From IMG/VR virus record IMGVR_UViG_2606217104_000008: a stretch of DNA of 9,412 nucleotides; one strand, 5' to 3'. The stretch comes from a virus. Taxonomy: Duplodnaviria; Heunggongvirae; Uroviricota; Caudoviricetes. A program made the position numbers and the translations under genes. This document shows positions 1 through 7,763 of this stretch, piece by piece. The notes under the pieces were generated by a model. The model did not search any database, had not been told where the DNA came from, and saw only the letters and a list, made by a program, of their open reading frames with translations. Position 1 is the stretch's first letter. Each line of letters starts with the position of its first letter.

Positions 1-343
1 ACACCGTGACCTGAAACTCCAGGGTTGCACGGTAACAGCGGTTTTCCGGAATATAGTCCTGCATTTCACTGACGGATCCCGGGGCCAGCAGCATTATGGC
101 TTCACGGGCGTCCTGACGTATCTGACGCGCCTGCGTCACAGTCCCGGCATAAACGTCTATCTGCACCGACACTGAGGACTCCGCCTGCCCGCCCATCACG
201 TCCGCAGACACCGATGAAATCAGGCTGAAAACCACCCACGGAAGCGCCACCGACGGCCTGCCATCCAGCAGGGGGACCACATACGGGTACACCTGCCCGC
301 CGGCAAGATGTGCCAGATGAGGATACAAATCCGCCTCCGTCAT
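1..343 (-). CDS. Phage tail completion / tail-terminator-like protein (DUF3168-like), N-terminal part only; the 3' end lies beyond the left edge of the window
   Basis: Reverse-complement of 1-343 translates from ATG (343..341) as MTEADLYPHLAHLAGGQVYPYVVPLLDGRPSVALPWVVFSLISSVSADVMGGQAESSVSVQIDVYAGT... with no stop before the edge. The start overlaps the stop of the upstream gene as ATGA. Position after the gp10-family gene fits the HK97-type head-to-tail order. Family call is from memory of DUF3168 composition. Confidence 0.5.
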   Translation of the reverse strand, partial: MTEADLYPHLAHLAGGQVYPYVVPLLDGRPSVALPWVVFSLISSVSADVMGGQAESSVSVQIDVYAGTVTQARQIRQDAREAIMLLAPGSVSEMQDYIPENRCYRATLEFQVTV

Positions 344-786
344 CGTCTCAGTACCTCATCAATGGCCCGGTTCATCCGCGCAATCGCCACCTGTGCCGCC
401 TGTTCACTGCGCACATCAAATGCCGGGCGCACAAACGGGTGCGGTGGCATATTCACGGTCCCCATTTCCACAAACCGCCAGTAGAAAGCATTGCGCGGGT
501 TATCCGCCTTCATGGTGTTATCGCTGTTACCGGTGTCCGGATTAACACCCCGGATATGCACACCGGATTCCATCCCGCCATCGCGGGAGCGCCGGGAAAG
601 GACCACCACATTGCGGCGCAGTTTTCCCCTGCGTACCGGTGCCCGTGACACCACTTCTTCTTTCAGCACATTCGCACCCGCACGGGTTGCCTCACGCAGC
701 ACCCGGTTATTTTCTGCACCACTCAGAAGCTGCAAATCGCGGCTGATGTCCTCCAGCCCCGAAAAATCCAGCAGGGTTTCGATCAT
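340..786 (-). CDS. HK97 gp10-family phage head-tail (neck) protein
   Basis: 148-aa ORF. The motif PHPFVRPAFD and overall pattern are typical of the HK97 gp10 family. ATGA overlaps with both flanking genes (783-786 and 340-343). Confidence 0.65.
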   Translation of the reverse strand: MIETLLDFSGLEDISRDLQLLSGAENNRVLREATRAGANVLKEEVVSRAPVRRGKLRRNVVVLSRRSRDGGMESGVHIRGVNPDTGNSDNTMKADNPRNAFYWRFVEMGTVNMPPHPFVRPAFDVRSEQAAQVAIARMNRAIDEVLRR

Positions 787-1133
787 TTTTCACCTCCCAG
801 CCGACAGAGAATTTCCAGACGTCCGCCGGTCGCATCCGGCACGGGCAGCCCGACAACGTTCAGGATCCGGTCACGCCAGGGACCACTCAGCACATGAAGT
901 CGTGACGCTGCCGTGATTTCCCGACCGGACTGACCGCGCACCCAGATGCGGATTTCCGCCTGCGCCATTTCCGCACCGGACTGCATCCGCTCCCGGCTGC
1001 TCCTGCCACGGATATCCGCATGAATTTTCCCGCATGACACCCATTCTTCCGTCATTTCTCCGGCAGCATTACGGGTTAACACCGGGTTCAGAACACTTAT
1101 CATCTGTGTCAGACGACCTGCAGATATTGCCAT
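783..1133 (-). CDS. Phage head closure / head-tail adaptor protein (gp7-like, Phage_H_T_join family)
   Basis: 116-aa ORF with the ...EIRIWVR... pattern typical of head-tail joining proteins. Strong Shine-Dalgarno AGGAGGGAGGA lies immediately upstream of the ATG at 1133. Confidence 0.65.
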   Translation of the reverse strand: MAISAGRLTQMISVLNPVLTRNAAGEMTEEWVSCGKIHADIRGRSSRERMQSGAEMAQAEIRIWVRGQSGREITAASRLHVLSGPWRDRILNVVGLPVPDATGGRLEILCRLGGEK

Positions 1134-1143
1134 TCCTCCCTCC

Positions 1144-1470
1144 TCATAACACCGTCGGACAACGCAAATCGTAAATCAGCACGGACACAGAAAACGGCAG
1201 TTCCCCCTGCACGAGGTCTTCCCGCTCAGCAAGATCCGGATTCCGGTACAGCATCCCGGTCAGTCGCATGGCAGCCCCCTTCATCCGGGTTAATGCCTCG
1301 CCCGGGATCAGCTCACCGTCCTCACGAATCACTTTATCCCGGCTGCCCTGAATGTAGGCCAGCAGCACGGCGGTAGCCTGACGAACCTTGTCCATCAGCA
1401 TGTCATCATCCGCGTCATGGTCAACACGCAGATGTGCCTTGATCTCTTCCAGTGTCAGTAATGCCGTCAT
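1144..1470 (-). CDS. Phage head-tail connector protein (gp6-like, Phage_connect_1 family)
   Basis: 108-aa ORF. N-terminus TLEEIKAHLRVDHDADDDMLMDKV matches the acidic LEE.K..LR.D.DDDD signature of gp6-type connectors. The ATG at 1470 overlaps the TGA of the upstream gene (ATGA). Confidence 0.7.
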   Translation of the reverse strand: MTALLTLEEIKAHLRVDHDADDDMLMDKVRQATAVLLAYIQGSRDKVIREDGELIPGEALTRMKGAAMRLTGMLYRNPDLAEREDLVQGELPFSVSVLIYDLRCPTVL

Positions 1471-2528
1471 TTTCCGCCTCCTGCATCCCGTCCACGTTTT
1501 GCAGCCAGGGTCCAGCCTGATGAATGAGCTTCTCCGGGTTTATCACCGGTCATACTGTTGCAGTGCCACAGCGAGCCCCCCCACGTCACCGTATCGCCGG
1601 GGTGGTAGGTTTCACCGGCTCTGAACACACCGCGGTAGAGCATCACCGGCAGGGAAAATGTTTTTTCCGTACACTGGCCACTGCTCTGCCGGATCACCAC
1701 AGAGAACAACCGCTCACCCGTCATACTGACGTCAATATCCGCCACCCCGTCAACCAGGCATTCCCATCCCCGCATCCCGTGCGTTTTTTCATACGCCCGC
1801 CAGAGTCCTCCAAGGTGTGTGGCATACGTGCCCCGGGGAAAGGATTTTTGATCGTCAATGGCGGGGAGCACTTCCAGTGCCGTGGCATCACGCCCGTCCT
1901 GCGGAGCCGGCAGGGCATTCACCGCCTCCAGAACCGCCTTCCGCAGAACATCGGGATCGTAGTCACGACCATCACGCGGAACGGGAATATGGCTTACAGC
2001 CTCTTTCACCATCTGCTCAAGCATCGGACGCACATCATCGGGGGTGATACTTTTGCCGTCCGCCGGTACCGGAATTCTCCCGACCGCATCATTCACCGCC
2101 TGCTTCAGTACTTCCGGATCGTAATCACGACCATCGCGGGGAGCTGGAATATGGCCCACTGCCTCCGCCACCATCTGCTCAAGCATCGGACGCACATCAT
2201 CCGGGGTGAGACTTTTGCCGTCCGCCGGTACCGGAATATTCGCAACCGCATCATTCACCGCCTGCTGCAGTACATCCGGATCATAATCACGACCATCACG
2301 CGGTACCGAAATGGCCCCCACAGCGTCATCCACCATCGCCTGCAGAACCGGACGCACCTCATCCACCGTCACATGCTTCTGTAATACCGCCGACAGGGAA
2401 GTCAGTTTCTCTTCAAACGCTTGTGCCTGCGAGGCCATCTTCCCCTCAAATGTGCGCTGTAAATCCGCCAGCACCGTGGAGAATTCTTCACCCAGCGCAC
2501 GGATAATGGACAGTTCACGCTCTGTCAT
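1467..2528 (-). CDS. Repeat-containing phage structural protein of unknown function: coiled-coil-like N-terminus, three tandem ~54-aa repeats, aromatic CBM5/12-like C-terminal motif; possibly a head decoration or fibre protein
   Basis: 353-aa ORF, ATGA-coupled to portal upstream (2525-2528) and connector downstream (1467-1470). Repeats such as DVRPMLEQMVAEAVGHIPAPRDGRDYDPEVLKQAVNDAVGRIPVPADGKSITPD occur three times. C-terminus YHPGDTVTWGGSLWHCNSMTGDKPGEAHSSGWTL resembles the Y..GD.V.Y.G..Y.C...GW pattern of chitin-binding-type modules. The antisense plus-strand ORF (1524-2384) is His/Arg-rich junk. Confidence 0.6.
   Translation of the reverse strand: MTERELSIIRALGEEFSTVLADLQRTFEGKMASQAQAFEEKLTSLSAVLQKHVTVDEVRPVLQAMVDDAVGAISVPRDGRDYDPDVLQQAVNDAVANIPVPADGKSLTPDDVRPMLEQMVAEAVGHIPAPRDGRDYDPEVLKQAVNDAVGRIPVPADGKSITPDDVRPMLEQMVKEAVSHIPVPRDGRDYDPDVLRKAVLEAVNALPAPQDGRDATALEVLPAIDDQKSFPRGTYATHLGGLWRAYEKTHGMRGWECLVDGVADIDVSMTGERLFSVVIRQSSGQCTEKTFSLPVMLYRGVFRAGETYHPGDTVTWGGSLWHCNSMTGDKPGEAHSSGWTLAAKRGRDAGGGK
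1918..2366 (-). repeat. Intragenic tandem DNA repeat, about 3 x 162 bp (each with an internal ~81-bp sub-period), encoding the protein repeats of the 353-aa gene
   Basis: Near-identical segments recur with a 162-bp period, e.g. tccggatcgtaatcacgaccatcgcgggg at about 2113 and tccggatcataatcacgaccatcacgcgg at about 2275, and ccatctgctcaagcatcggacgcacatcatc at 2010 and 2171. Confidence 0.8.
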
Positions 2529-3889
2529 TTTCGCAGTATCCCCCTGAACATCGCCTTCACCGCATCACGCTCTGTTTCGCTTATGGCCTTATTACCGTCA
2601 GATGCGCCCTCCTGGCGTGTGCCTGACGACGTTTTCCCGGAAGACGCGAACGGATCCTCACGGGCATCACGACGGGACAGCGCCTCCAGACTGTAGTTCT
2701 GCTGCTGAAGATACAGTGCATCACCGCCGGCAAGGGGCGGCAGGTTCTCACGTTTACGGGCCTCATTGGGCGTGAGAAGCGTATTTTTCACCGATTCACC
2801 CAGCGTTTTCATGCGACGTTCGCTGTCCATTCTCAGCAGCGTGGTGACGTCAAACTCCGTACTCTCGTTTTCCCCCGTTTCCAGCGCCTCATCCAGTAAC
2901 AGTTCAATGGACTCAATCAGCGTCTGCAGGCACTGGGAATAATACTGCTGCTCCAGCGCCTCCACGTTGTCACTGGAAGGCGGGTGGCCAACGCCAATCT
3001 TGTAGGCCGGGACACGGAACACCGAACAGACAATTTCAGCGGTCATCTTCAGTTGTTCCACCGTCTGCGCATCCACCGGTGAAAACGTCGTGGGGTTGTA
3101 TTTTGCCCCGTTGCTCAGAATGGCCGTTTTCCCCGCATTTTCGCCGGTATACCCGCTGTCCCAGTTGCTCTTCAGTTTTTTCGCATTTTCTTCCGTTATA
3201 CTGCCGGGGATCTCAATCACCCCGGACGGCCTGCCGCCATTTCTGAAAAAAGACGTCGAATTTTCCTGAATATGATGCCCCTGCGTGGCCGCCAGCCCGG
3301 CGGCATACACCGGCGGCAACCCTATAAGCGGATGAAAAAAACAGTTAAACCGGTCGTGGATCACTTCCCGGGCAGGCACCGTCACCGCCTCCGTGATCCC
3401 GCAGTTCCGGTCCGGCGTGATGCGGTAGAACACCTCGCCGTCATCCGCCACCAGAGGTTCAACCCGGCTCCAGTCCAGAATACGCAGTTCTTTGATCTGC
3501 CCCCGGGAGTTACGGATTTTCAGCACCACCGTATTGCCGTGACGCAGTTTGGCGTTCAGCCACAGTTCAAAAAACTGGATACGATTCTGCTGTGCATTGG
3601 GACGACGACAGAGACGGGCAATATCCCCCTGCCGTTTTTCACGGCGGATCCCCTGTGTATCCGTCTGCATCAGGCGCAGCCGCATTTTGGCGATATCCTG
3701 GGATATCAGCGAAATGCAAGAAAACACCGCATGAAAGGAGAGGACACTTTCCGGATCGGCTTTCACCCCCTGCTGCCAGGCGCCGGCAAAGGGCTCAGCC
3801 ACCGCCTGAAACAGGCTGGTCCAGCCCACCTCTTTTACATCACGTCCTGATTTCTGGTTTTTTCGGGTTCGCCGCAAAAGGTTCCACAT
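2525..3889 (-). CDS. Phage portal protein, HK97 family
   Basis: 454-aa ORF with portal-typical segments (SFHAVFSCISLISQDIAKMRLRL, FFRNGGRPSGVIEIPG, NGAKY, ALYLQQQNYSLEAL). ATG at 3889 is the first ATG after an in-frame TGA, with GGAG 8 nt upstream. Confidence 0.85.
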   Translation of the reverse strand: MWNLLRRTRKNQKSGRDVKEVGWTSLFQAVAEPFAGAWQQGVKADPESVLSFHAVFSCISLISQDIAKMRLRLMQTDTQGIRREKRQGDIARLCRRPNAQQNRIQFFELWLNAKLRHGNTVVLKIRNSRGQIKELRILDWSRVEPLVADDGEVFYRITPDRNCGITEAVTVPAREVIHDRFNCFFHPLIGLPPVYAAGLAATQGHHIQENSTSFFRNGGRPSGVIEIPGSITEENAKKLKSNWDSGYTGENAGKTAILSNGAKYNPTTFSPVDAQTVEQLKMTAEIVCSVFRVPAYKIGVGHPPSSDNVEALEQQYYSQCLQTLIESIELLLDEALETGENESTEFDVTTLLRMDSERRMKTLGESVKNTLLTPNEARKRENLPPLAGGDALYLQQQNYSLEALSRRDAREDPFASSGKTSSGTRQEGASDGNKAISETERDAVKAMFRGILRK

Positions 3890-4100: not shown

Positions 4101-6038
4101 TCAGCCACCGGACGCAGTTCCGTAGTTCACACCGGTGATCACCGCCACTGCCGCAGTACGGCGACGACGCCAGTTGATCCAGCGCTCCGCACGGATGGCC
4201 ACGCTGCCGGTCTGAAACATGGAGACCAGTTCCACCGGTGACGGTGTGCTGCTGTCGCTGGTCGGTTCAGACTGCATTTCCAGTGACGCTTCACGGGACA
4301 TATCCACTGCCACACCGCCGTCATCCGCCAGATAAATATCCGGGGCATTCACCAGCACCAGCTGGTCACCCACGTACTGGGAGACAATCACCGGCAGCCC
4401 CTGGAAGGTCCCGCCCAGCAAGGTCATGTCCGGATATTCCTTCTGACCCAGCGCATTTTTACGCATGGACAGTGCCAGGGCATTGGTGCTGGACATCAGC
4501 CAGACCGCACCGGTGGGCTGCAGGTTTGCTGCCACAAACTGGCCAAACGCCGCCTCTGCATCCGCATCCGGGTTACCGGTTGATGCCGTGCCCTTCACAT
4601 CATGGGTGATGGACGCCGGGGAGACATCTGCCACTGCGGCTTTTTTCGGGTCCACAAAGTCTGTGTCCAGACGCGCCACCACCGCTTCTGCCAGCGCATT
4701 ACGGACCAGCGCATCAGCTGCCGGACTGGAAAAACGGATCAGCTCTTCCGTCAGTACCGCAATGGCCGACACCTTCGCATGACTGAAGGTGATGGACTCA
4801 AAATCAAACTTCGTCAGGGGTCTGGCCTTACCCTCCCCCACCCAGCCGGCAGCACCGCCGGACACCTGGGCATGCACGCGGATATTGAACGGCACCTGAC
4901 GAAGTGCAGGGATCCCGCCCTGACCAAATCGCCCGATAATGGTCTGCGGACGCAGGTAATCAATAAAGTCCTGTGCGTATTCCTGATATTCAGACAGGCT
5001 GCCTGCCCACTGCGGATCCGTGGTGGTCCCTGCCCCCACCGCCGATTTCAGGACATGATGCAGACGGCTGTCATCCGGATACTGACGACGGGCCACTTCC
5101 AGGGCTTCAGAGCGGACACCTTTAGCCGCGGCCAGTGATTTGGCAAAGCGGGCGAAACCAATCCCCTTCTCCAGTTTCTGCTCAACACGGATCACCGGCG
5201 CTGAAGCCACCGTGGCCACATTCCCGTTACCGGCCTGTTTCACCGGCTGTGCCGTGGCGGCCTTACTGGTTTCCAGTTCACGCAGACGCTTCAGGTGCGC
5301 ATCCACCTGACGGATTTCCGCTGCGGTGTTGTCGTAGTGCTCTTCCTCTTCCACATCCAGTGTGCGGCCTTCCTCTGCGGCTTTGTTCATGATCTCCTCA
5401 AGGGAGGCTGCCAGCGCCGCACGCTTGTTTTCAAAACTTTTAATCTGTTCACCAGTATTCATTGCTGACTTTTCCTTATGAAAAGAGGTTATTGACTGTG
5501 CCGAAGCGCCGGCAGAAGATGCGATTTTCACCACCGGTTTCCGGTTGCCGGACGCGGCAGAAAACGGGCGGTCGTAAGATTTAATGGTCCGGATGGTGCA
5601 TTCCGCATTCGCGGGCACGGTGACGGCAGACACCTCCATCAGTTCCCAGCGCAGAAAATGCAGTCCGCCTCCGTCCAGAAAGGTGTATTCATGGGGACGG
5701 AAGCCCACGGACAGCCCCCTGACCAGCCCGGTCTTAATGGCCGCCCAGACCTCATCCAGCCGGGCAGCCAGTTGCGACGGCATATCCGGTACGGGCTTCA
5801 CCAGTGTTGCCGTGATTTCCAGCCCTTCGCTGACCCGGCGCACCGTACACTGCCCCACCGGGCGGGAATGGTCATGCTGCCAGAGAAACGGGATCGCACT
5901 GCCAAACTCCGCGCCCTCCGGCTCCAGGATGTCACCATCCCGATCCGGAGAAGGCGTTGACGCAATCCCGGTGATCACCCGTTCATCCTCACTGAAGGAT
6001 TTCACCGTCAGCAGGGAACAGGCCCGTTTAAGAGTCAC
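4101..6038 (-). CDS. Prohead protease - scaffold (delta) domain - major capsid protein fusion (HK97-fold capsid with N-terminal HK97-family prohead protease)
   Basis: 645-aa ORF. N-terminus (ITGIASTPSPDRDGDILEPEGAEF...LWQHDHSRPVG) matches the HK97 prohead protease (S78/U35) pattern. The middle is charged and coiled-coil-like (EEEEHYDNTAAEIRQVDAHLKRLRELE). The C-terminal ~340 aa look like an HK97-type major capsid protein (...LVLVNAPDIYLADDGGVAVDMSREASLEM...). Start is GTG at 6038 with AGGAGG 5 nt upstream. Confidence 0.85.
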   Translation of the reverse strand: MTLKRACSLLTVKSFSEDERVITGIASTPSPDRDGDILEPEGAEFGSAIPFLWQHDHSRPVGQCTVRRVSEGLEITATLVKPVPDMPSQLAARLDEVWAAIKTGLVRGLSVGFRPHEYTFLDGGGLHFLRWELMEVSAVTVPANAECTIRTIKSYDRPFSAASGNRKPVVKIASSAGASAQSITSFHKEKSAMNTGEQIKSFENKRAALAASLEEIMNKAAEEGRTLDVEEEEHYDNTAAEIRQVDAHLKRLRELETSKAATAQPVKQAGNGNVATVASAPVIRVEQKLEKGIGFARFAKSLAAAKGVRSEALEVARRQYPDDSRLHHVLKSAVGAGTTTDPQWAGSLSEYQEYAQDFIDYLRPQTIIGRFGQGGIPALRQVPFNIRVHAQVSGGAAGWVGEGKARPLTKFDFESITFSHAKVSAIAVLTEELIRFSSPAADALVRNALAEAVVARLDTDFVDPKKAAVADVSPASITHDVKGTASTGNPDADAEAAFGQFVAANLQPTGAVWLMSSTNALALSMRKNALGQKEYPDMTLLGGTFQGLPVIVSQYVGDQLVLVNAPDIYLADDGGVAVDMSREASLEMQSEPTSDSSTPSPVELVSMFQTGSVAIRAERWINWRRRRTAAVAVITGVNYGTASGG

Positions 6039-6101: not shown

Positions 6102-7763
6102 TTATATGAAAAAAACCTCATATTCTTTCTTTTTCGGTTCCGGGTTAAGGGACATCAGGGAGACCGCATTGAACAGCGCCATCAGCGGGTCAATTTTTCC
6201 CCGTCCACTGGCCTGTTTGGTGATAAGAATGGCGTTACCTTTAGGCTCCACCCGGGCATTGCCAACGCACCAGGCCATCAGTGGCTGATCACCATGCACC
6301 AGCACCCCTTCAGCCAGTTTGCGCTCGGTGGTTTTGATGGCCCCGCCCAGCTTCCAGCCCTGGCTTATCCCCACCACACTCTCATCGGGGATCCCGGCTT
6401 CCGCCAGTGAATCCAGAATCTGCCCCACACCTGACGGGTCAATACCGATATGATCCAGTAACTCAGCCTCATGAATACGACGCACATACTCCGCCACTTC
6501 CGCCGTGTCATCCCCGACCCGACGGACAATCGTCATGTCTCCACAGGCCACAAAATCCTGAAACCGGGATGCCTCACTCTTCCGTCTGACCACCGCGGTT
6601 TCATGCACCCAGGCATGGCCCCAGCCCAGCCATTCGCGGGTTTCCCTGTCACGGCCAGTCACGTACATTCCCAGCAGATCATCCAGGCCCCCGCCGTCAA
6701 TCCCCACCGTCACCACATCAGCGCGCTGCAGGATATCGTCCAGGCTGACGCGCCTGCCCTGCTGCTCCCAGAAATCCGCGCCCGCCCAGCGGTCAGAACG
6801 CAGGGCAAGACCGATTTCCACATTGGCGTGTTTTGACATGAAGCCACGGAATGTCTCTTCACCGGCTTCCCGGGCTTTACGATACTCCCGGTACAGAAAG
6901 GCCTCATCCACCGAATAACCGAGATTCGGGTTAACCATGGCGAGGTTTTCCATCAGCAGGTGAGCCCCGCTTTCCACCATTTCAGGAGGGTGTTCAAATA
7001 TCACCGGCAGAAAGTGCGGATCATGAATTTTGCCGTCACGGACATCCCGGGCGTACTGCAGTTTCTGTCTGAACACCCCGGCAGGCGGTTCATTCGACTG
7101 GGTGGTTGTGTACACCACAAACCCTTCCGGACGTGAAGCCAGCCCGCCGATGGCTTCACGTAGCATGTCTTCCGCTTTGTACTGCTTGCCAAACAGCCAC
7201 AGTTCATCAATCAGTGTCCCCACGGACTTGATACCGGACACCGTATTCGGATCGGCTGCCACCACCTTCAGGGTGGTGTCCGTCACCCGATGGGTGATGG
7301 TCCGGATATGTGTCTGCACCTGACAGAGGTCATCCAGATCATCGTCCCGTCGTACCATATCCCTGGCAGGGTTGAAGGCGTTAGCCGCCACCTCCACGGT
7401 CGGGGCCAGAATGGTGTAGCCCGCCGCCTGCCGCCAGTTCAGTAACAGCGCCGTCATCATGATCCCCGCGGCCAGCGTGGACTTACTGTTTTTCTTGGGG
7501 ATAAGGATAAACACTTCCTTGATATGGCGAACACCGGTCTGCGCATCGTAGGAGCCAAACAGGGCCGCCACCAGGTCAAACACCCACGGTGCACAGGACT
7601 CCCCGAATGTCGGGCTACCCGGTGCATCCACAATTCGCAGTTGTTTAAAAATCGCCAGTGCATGTGCAGCCTGGTCCGGATAAATCGGAGCCGGAATAAT
7701 CGACAGCCCCTTTTTCAGGCGCTCTGCCCAGTCCGGACATGCCGTGCTCCATACAGGTATCAT
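6102..7763 (-). CDS. Phage terminase large subunit (Terminase_1-type ATPase/nuclease)
   Basis: 553-aa ORF with a Walker-A-like segment (ILIPKKNSKSTLAAG), typical terminase size, and placement directly after the small subunit with an ATGA overlap (7760-7763). Confidence 0.9.
   Translation of the reverse strand: MIPVWSTACPDWAERLKKGLSIIPAPIYPDQAAHALAIFKQLRIVDAPGSPTFGESCAPWVFDLVAALFGSYDAQTGVRHIKEVFILIPKKNSKSTLAAGIMMTALLLNWRQAAGYTILAPTVEVAANAFNPARDMVRRDDDLDDLCQVQTHIRTITHRVTDTTLKVVAADPNTVSGIKSVGTLIDELWLFGKQYKAEDMLREAIGGLASRPEGFVVYTTTQSNEPPAGVFRQKLQYARDVRDGKIHDPHFLPVIFEHPPEMVESGAHLLMENLAMVNPNLGYSVDEAFLYREYRKAREAGEETFRGFMSKHANVEIGLALRSDRWAGADFWEQQGRRVSLDDILQRADVVTVGIDGGGLDDLLGMYVTGRDRETREWLGWGHAWVHETAVVRRKSEASRFQDFVACGDMTIVRRVGDDTAEVAEYVRRIHEAELLDHIGIDPSGVGQILDSLAEAGIPDESVVGISQGWKLGGAIKTTERKLAEGVLVHGDQPLMAWCVGNARVEPKGNAILITKQASGRGKIDPLMALFNAVSLMSLNPEPKKKEYEVFFI

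Follow-up and report, generated by a model that had tools for sequence, protein, structure and literature searches.

ORF X between the portal and connector genes

The window analyzed here, the whole 9,412-nucleotide stretch taken from IMG/VR virus record IMGVR_UViG_2606217104_000008 (Caudoviricetes), carries a lambdoid, HK97-type head module, the genes of interest all being located on the minus strand. The subject of this report is an open reading frame (ORF) of 353 amino acids (aa), referred to below as X, which lies between the genes encoding the portal protein and the head-tail connector. With TerS and TerL denoting the small and large terminase subunits, the gene order is TerS-TerL-(protease-capsid fusion)-portal-X-connector, an arrangement found in proteobacterial temperate siphophages and prophages. 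X is joined to both neighbors by ATGA overlaps: at positions 2525 to 2528 the portal stop codon (TGA) overlaps the start codon (ATG) of X, and at positions 1467 to 1470 the X stop codon (TGA) overlaps the start codon (ATG) of the connector gene. An earlier note on this DNA had placed the ORF and both overlaps correctly, without mentioning that they are on the minus strand. X is a separate gene of the head module, translationally coupled to the portal and connector genes. The features concerned are as follows:

2525 to 3889, minus strand: portal gene, 454 aa, HK97 family (PF04860, E = 6.5e-81; TIGR01537, E = 2e-106); constant upstream partner of X
2540 to 2544, minus strand: run of five guanines (G5, within AGGGGG), located 11 nucleotides (nt) before the X start codon; it probably serves as the Shine-Dalgarno sequence of X and is where G5 and G6 alleles differ
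1467 to 2528, minus strand: X, 353 aa (phrog_1289, E = 3.6e-181, over the full length)
2379 to 2528, minus strand: N-terminal helix of X, aa 1 to 50; putative coiled coil and anchor
1878 to 2363, minus strand: repeats of X, three tandem units of 54 aa (162 nt), aa 56 to 217, forming the stalk
1470 to 1916, minus strand: conserved C-terminal domain of X, aa 205 to 353
1500 to 1643, minus strand: CBM5/12-like module of X, aa 296 to 343
1144 to 1470, minus strand: Ad1 head-tail connector gene (gp6-like; PF05135, phrog_40); constant downstream neighbor of X

According to the earlier note, HK97-type clusters usually have no gene between portal and connector. Comparison with relatives contradicted this for the module type of the window: X was present in every relative examined, that is, in about 80 diverged proteobacterial loci, as a separate ORF immediately following the portal gene. 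Among 1.84 billion representative sequences, 5,575 clusters (50% identity) of X relatives were found at an E value of <1e-3 and 605 at <1e-30, nearly all of them stand-alone proteins of about 200 to 600 aa; among the 149 best representatives from outside Escherichia coli, a single one (P0249) was fused to a portal. When the contigs of species-level genomes were searched with a profile made from an 8-sequence alignment, both genes were found in 41 genomes spanning Enterobacterales, Pseudomonas, Burkholderiales, and Alphaproteobacteria; X was fused in none of these and stood separately, with anything from a 14-nt overlap to a 5-nt gap at the portal stop codon, followed by the connector gene. A portal-only search of IMG/VR (58 to 69% portal identity) likewise yielded a separate X after the portal gene in 38 of 38 loci (four other loci, which end within 700 nt after the portal gene, were not counted), and three distant metagenomic loci had the portal-X-connector arrangement of the window. 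Closer to the window, the DNA of X is 90 to 96% identical to that of many Stx1a-, Stx2c-, and Stx2a-converting siphophages (e.g., YYZ-2008, 2851, and BP-4795), and matches to X were found in 1,247 of 5,426 complete E. coli genomes, at a median of four places per genome. In PHROGs, phrog_1289 covers residues 1 to 353 and is matched by distant members of the family too, and phrog_2271, an 859-position portal family, matches X over positions 630 to 859, its last 230 positions thus corresponding to X.

Throughout the family, X is composed of three parts, namely, an N-terminal helix, a variable stalk, and a C-terminal domain of about 140 aa. The structure was modeled with AlphaFold2 on the basis of a 57-sequence alignment, a run on the single sequence having been uninformative (mean pLDDT, the confidence score of the model, of 41). 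The coiled-coil-like N terminus described in the earlier note was modeled as one helix over residues 3 to 50 (pLDDT, ~80); between lineages this helix differs, with 17 to 50% identity to that of the window. The middle of the protein was modeled as six repeat helices with low-confidence loops between them, and the C-terminal domain is all-beta from about residue 235, with a pLDDT of ~90 over residues 260 to 340.

At the DNA level, Tandem Repeats Finder reported a repeat at positions 1933 to 2364 with a period of 162 nt, 2.7 copies, 83% matches, and a score of 580. The corresponding 54-aa units, at aa 56 to 109, 110 to 163, and 164 to 217, each consist of two 27-aa helix-loop halves, as the earlier note had it; with pairwise identities of 74%, 69%, and 59%, the units are merely similar, not near-identical as stated there. 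All halves have in common only the motif D.V..L...V..AV..IP.P.DG.D, which places an IPxPxDGxD loop after the helix of each half-unit. The susceptibility to copy-number variation that had been anticipated was seen on comparison across E. coli relatives, in which the number of 54-aa units ranges from one to seven: the stalk is recombination prone, and its length probably varies by unequal recombination. In other lineages, the stalk is replaced by PEPxLPDI repeats or by collagen-like G-X-Y runs (P0303 and P0375). At least six G-X-Y triplets were found in 39 of 149 diverse representatives of the family, and nine of the 149 contain the motif GFxGT..WLxSL, which is typical of phage tail fibers; the X of the window itself has no G-X-Y triplet runs and did not qualify as collagen-like (PF01391). 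Most NCBI entries for X are labeled "partial," and four IMG/VR contigs (L303, L308, L314, and L322) end inside the gene; the 162-nt repeats seem to break short-read assemblies.

The C-terminal domain is conserved, the family alignment having 19 invariant and 34 nearly invariant columns. In distant relatives, its identity to the window is 50 to 71%, compared with 44 to 70% for the portal and 28 to 69% for the connector; measured in this way, the domain is as conserved as the portal or more so, and more conserved than the connector. Conserved residues include the aromatics Y298, Y308, W316, W321, and W339 and a basic tail, KRGRD. With a profile of the domain, matches to chitin-binding modules were obtained in chitin deacetylases and chitinases (E, about 5e-5), and the last ~50 residues have the small three-stranded beta fold of CBM5/12 chitin-binding domains. 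The fold of the CBM5/12-like C terminus proposed in the earlier note is thereby supported, even though the Pfam score is below threshold; precomputed PF02839 matches exist for many X homologues, some of them listed as faint. Besides chitinases, the nearest solved chains are Cis13 of the Anabaena injection system, a tail fiber homologue, and tail fibers of phage 7-7-1, and the viral structure matches are to collagen-repeat and tail-fiber-like proteins. The first beta subdomain (about residues 205 to 295) matches only its own PHROGs. A Foldseek search of X against the PDB found nothing at an E value of <1e-3, and searches of Pfam, NCBIfam, and PDB sequences found no significant family besides the subthreshold CBM_5_12.

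Split and fused forms of portal and X

In phages YYZ-2008 and 2851, portal and X are joined in a single ORF (861 and 859 aa, respectively), of which X is the in-frame C-terminal half. A DNA alignment of the window, YYZ-2008, and E. coli C325 showed that split and fused forms differ only by the presence of G5 or G6 in the run TTCAGGGGG(G)ATACTG. Among 82 loci, 56 have G5 and are split and 26 have G6 and are fused, and exact scans of the whole IMG/VR collection found 95 stretches with G5 and 41 with G6, so that the split form accounts for 70% of the junctions. About 30% of E. coli relatives thus have X fused to the portal by the G6 insertion, which is why databases call the X family (PHROG 1289/2271) "portal protein." X itself does not qualify for that name, since PF04860 and TIGR01537 match only the upstream 454-aa ORF (residues 45 to 388).

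The split form is not confined to a particular background. Clustering of the flanks placed G5 on more than 30 flanking haplotype clusters, whereas most of the G6 loci fell into a single clade and the rest into a few small ones; the split form is also that of the isolated phages BP-4795, FSL SP-016, and Lys8385Vzw. X remains an intact ORF in 53 of the 56 split and 25 of the 26 fused loci, and the ratio of nonsynonymous to synonymous substitution rates (dN/dS) in its C-terminal domain is 0.175 in the former and 0.155 in the latter (0.15 to 0.18 overall); X in the split form (dN/dS, about 0.17) is evidently under purifying selection. In distant relatives, AAGGAG or GAAGGA is found 8 to 12 nt before the X start codon, and in E. 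coli the AGGGGG run holds that very place, so the fusion amounts to the insertion of one base within what is probably the ribosome-binding site of X. Judging from these comparisons, the split state is ancestral, and the fused allele has arisen from it and is, at a minimum, tolerated; X, in turn, is an independent, conserved gene with its own start codon behind the AGGGGG run and not part of a broken portal. Phage 2851, with the fused form, is reported to be viable.

Existing annotation implies the opposite, namely, that a frameshift has broken the portal gene, leaving X as its 3' remnant and a pseudogene in a decaying prophage. In support of this, the near-identical locus in E. coli C325 bears the PGAP annotation "phage portal protein, frameshifted," the entry "portal protein (pseudogene)" is found in several records of Stx phages, and one G is all that separates the split form from the 861-aa ORF of YYZ-2008. 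Nevertheless, the numerical predominance of the split form, its many haplotypes against the largely single clade of G6, its occurrence in isolated phages, and an X ORF that is nearly always intact, with low dN/dS, all argue against decay, as does the exclusive occurrence of the split form in about 80 diverged loci beyond the E. coli clade. We therefore give this explanation hardly any credence, and the label "frameshifted portal" on the split form is an annotation artifact. Very little more can be said for the idea that the poly(G) run is a programmed switch that determines how much short portal is made relative to the portal-X fusion, either by -1 slippage at G GGG AUA or by heritable G5/G6 phase variation, an explanation that we regard as very improbable. 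It is true that a -1 slip at the run would yield exactly the G6 protein sequence, that the codon next after the run, AUA, is rare in E. coli, and that both G states occur on closely related backgrounds, one G5 locus (L037) having flanks identical to the main G6 cluster. However, five guanines are few for phase variation, G6 is largely clonal, no slippery heptamer of the form X XXY YYZ was found in the portal frame, AUA is replaced by AUU in some G5 alleles, and in distant relatives the overlaps are different, X being read in either the -1 or the +1 frame relative to the portal, and a homopolymer run is missing. Given the missing in-frame heptamer and the variation of overlaps and frames among relatives, programmed frameshifting was rejected as the main explanation; as for recurrent phase variation, the distribution of G6 and the one G5 locus on a G6 background indicate that switching occurs, albeit infrequently.

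Some loci depart from both forms. In L086 (phage vB_EcoS_phi330), L117 (Proteus mirabilis), and L102, portal and/or X are divided over several ORFs, which may reflect either true decay or homopolymer sequencing errors; the flanks of L086 differ at about 240 of 590 positions, owing to insertions and deletions. P0249, a protein of 1,237 aa from a distant lineage, is an independent portal-X fusion with at least 13 PEPEPLPDI-type repeats and an internal "M LSQRDQ" that resembles a former X start. A scan of the long members of the X family revealed no other informative domain fusion.

A candidate fiber at the portal vertex and its alternatives

We consider it possible, short of probable, that X is a segmented, probably trimeric fiber that its helix anchors at the portal vertex or neck, the C-terminal domain binding a conserved polymer. 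The N-terminal helix of ~50 residues would serve as the anchor, the stalk of helix-loop repeats would vary in length through unequal recombination, and the C-terminal beta domain could act as the nucleus of folding or trimerization, with its CBM5/12-like module binding the polymer, most plausibly a glycan backbone such as that of peptidoglycan or a conserved sugar of the envelope. The closest working analogue of such a protein would be a neck whisker of the fibritin type or a head fiber that is produced in step with the portal. The succession of helix, stalk, and beta domain, along with the collagen-like stalks of relatives, suggests fiber anatomy, and a C-terminal domain that is conserved like the portal, in a gene that is never absent, is more in keeping with a core component of the portal vertex than with a host-specific receptor tip. 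Of the head fiber with a glycan-binding tip that the earlier note envisaged, the fiber-like build is thus retained; a host-specific glycan-binding tip is doubtful, given the conservation of the domain and the missing W-x-P tryptophan (see below).

Several known systems resemble X in part. Fibritin of phage T4, whose gene wac adjoins the neck genes 13 and 14, is a segmented alpha-helical fiber with loops between its helical segments and a small conserved C-terminal domain; its gene, too, lies beside neck genes, and its stalk varies in length among relatives. No sequence or fold match between the two was found, however, and in place of the 30-aa foldon X has a beta domain of about 140 aa with a CBM5/12-like module; moreover, fibritin forms the neck whiskers, whereas the neck attachment of X is putative and X belongs to siphophage-type modules. 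Like X, gp8.5 of phage phi29 has a repeating helix-turn stalk on a head-module protein, and both are candidate accessory adhesion fibers, but gp8.5 is dispensable and patchy in distribution, X is invariably present, and homology was not detected. Anabaena Cis13, the phage 7-7-1 tail fibers, and PHROG 5073 have a similar C-terminal module, and G-X-Y runs are present in some X members; still, the matches to collagen-like and tail fiber proteins are weak and limited to the last ~50 residues, and the X gene is part of the head module and not the tail module. Finally, in contrast to the CBM5/12 modules of ChiA1, ChiB, ChiC, and the Vibrio cholerae chitin deacetylase, that of X misses the Pfam cutoff, lacks a counterpart to one of the exposed, chitin-binding aromatics, the W-x-P tryptophan (see below), and is part of a larger beta domain without structural matches.

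A number of observations weigh against a portal-vertex fiber. The PF02839 score of the window X, 18.7 bits, is below the gathering cutoff of 26.2 bits (the YYZ-2008 protein scores 20.3 bits), and the tryptophan in the W-x-P motif of the aligned chitin-binding module 8yfp ("wAP") falls into an insert state of the X family profile, without a counterpart in X; since K330 (nearly invariant) and P331 (invariant) occupy that point in the family, chitin-type binding by X is not to be assumed. A direct sequence search of the PDB found no solved structure containing X. That X is trimeric is suggested by the collagen-like relatives alone, and its placement in the virion is a prediction, our literature search having found no virion proteomics, cryo-electron microscopy study, or description of X or its head module. 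Accessory head fibers are usually dispensable and patchy in distribution; X is invariably present and its tip is conserved like the portal, unlike such host-adapted fibers. Lastly, in phages 2851 and YYZ-2008 and in the distant P0249, the C terminus of the portal is fused in frame to X; as this terminus faces the capsid interior in all solved portals, fusion would place X inside the capsid. The fused alleles do keep the ribosome-binding site and ATG, so that free X could still be made, and the fusions therefore do not settle its location.

It is somewhat unlikely, yet deserves serious attention, that X is an internal, portal-associated head protein that, like SPP1 gp7, Mu gpF, or the P22 portal barrel, is seated on the portal crown, from where it may exit with the DNA and bind peptidoglycan in the periplasm. 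X directly follows the portal gene, to which it is translationally coupled, and is never absent; this is the gene position of minor head proteins of the MuF/gp7 type, which are sometimes fused to the portal and, like X, presumably of low, portal-matched abundance. The portal fusions in E. coli relatives and in one distant lineage fit this explanation, as do the basic C-terminal tail and the portal-like conservation of the C-terminal domain, which would suit a ligand common to hosts (peptidoglycan or DNA) or a partner within the phage. Nonetheless, no MuF match (PF04233) was found for X in Pfam, NCBIfam, or PHROGs, leaving gene position as the only common trait, and X was not classed as a MuF- or SPP1 gp7-like protein, from which it also differs by its fiber-like repeat or collagen stalk and CBM-like tip. 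The G6 alleles do recall the P22 extended portal, with its long, partly helical C-terminal extension, but X is a separate gene in nearly all relatives, shows no 12-helix barrel motif, and has a beta domain at its end. In addition, collagen-like stalks, GFxGT..WLxSL, and CBM5/12-like tips belong to external phage fibers, a folded trimeric beta domain would have to unfold in order to cross a siphophage tail, and, with the start signals of X retained in fused alleles, tethered X is not proven to be the functional form. A more elaborate version, which we deem unlikely, would have X expelled from the crown through the tail ahead of or with the DNA, its thin stalk (coiled coil or collagen-like) and CBM5/12-like domain engaging peptidoglycan, and the single-G change switching between free and portal-tethered forms; placement on the crown would make it understandable that portal-X fusions are tolerated, and, if true, X would represent a previously unrecognized class of ejection or pilot proteins of HK97-type siphophages. 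Less likely still, X might be a nonvirion assembly factor, a helper in portal incorporation or scaffolding that is released or degraded during head maturation. Its coupling to the portal, its highly helical N-terminal half, elongated like that of scaffolding proteins, and a module without a separate scaffold gene, in which protease and capsid protein are fused, speak for this; it leaves unexplained the CBM5/12-like domain, the collagen-like and tail-fiber-type modules, and the free variation in stalk length.

Neighboring genes, annotation, and significance

The remaining genes of the head module in the window are the following:

8612 to 8977, minus strand: HNH endonuclease gene
7760 to 8323, minus strand: small terminase gene
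6102 to 7763, minus strand: large terminase gene
4101 to 6038, minus strand: prohead protease and major capsid protein fusion, 645 aa
3835 to 4056, minus strand: 73-aa ORF (phrog_829, unknown function)
783 to 1133, minus strand: head closure protein gene
340 to 786, minus strand: gene for a gp10-like protein

The HNH endonuclease gene is located directly upstream of the small terminase gene, and HNH next to terminase is the arrangement of HNH-assisted cos cleavage, as for HK97 gp74. Within the small terminase gene, a 27-nt unit is repeated twice (85% match; positions 7827 to 7880). The 645-aa ORF comprises an S78 prohead protease (aa 48 to 152), a linker of ~200 aa, and a major capsid protein of the HK97 fold (aa 386 to 635), and the position of the capsid gene upstream of the portal gene is the reverse of the usual HK97 order. 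The 73-aa ORF overlaps the portal start by ~55 nt; a hypothetical protein is annotated at the equivalent site in C325, YYZ-2008, BP-4795, and Lys8385Vzw.

Naming problems around X are not restricted to the portal label. Homologues from Klebsiella, Enterobacter, and Salmonella (P0294, P0362, P0354, and others) are named "phage gp6-like head-tail connector protein, partial," with no connector region in the sequence. As long as X is named "portal protein" or flagged as a frameshifted pseudogene, intact prophages may be scored as portal defective. Several lambdoid prophages of O157 Sakai have been scored "D" (defective) for portal function (PMC2669165, Table 1), and some of these scores may reflect the split portal/X arrangement and not a real defect. 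Such misscoring affects estimates of which Stx prophages can form particles. The head module is very common and is found in Stx1-, Stx2c-, and some Stx2a-converting siphophages; changes in the copy number of the X repeats, in turn, matter for typing and for prophage assembly.

The X family was already present in PHROGs, and proteins of the phage fiber-like kind are known; X is obligately paired with an HK97-type portal and has no characterized counterpart. New here are the single-G relation between X and the "long portals," the misannotation resulting from it, the invariable presence of X in proteobacterial relatives, and the conservation of its C-terminal domain. In the X family, with its length-variable stalk and conserved CBM5/12-like domain, HK97-type portals would have an obligate partner not recognized before, and knowing the position and ligand of X would extend the list of portal-vertex components in a major phage lineage.

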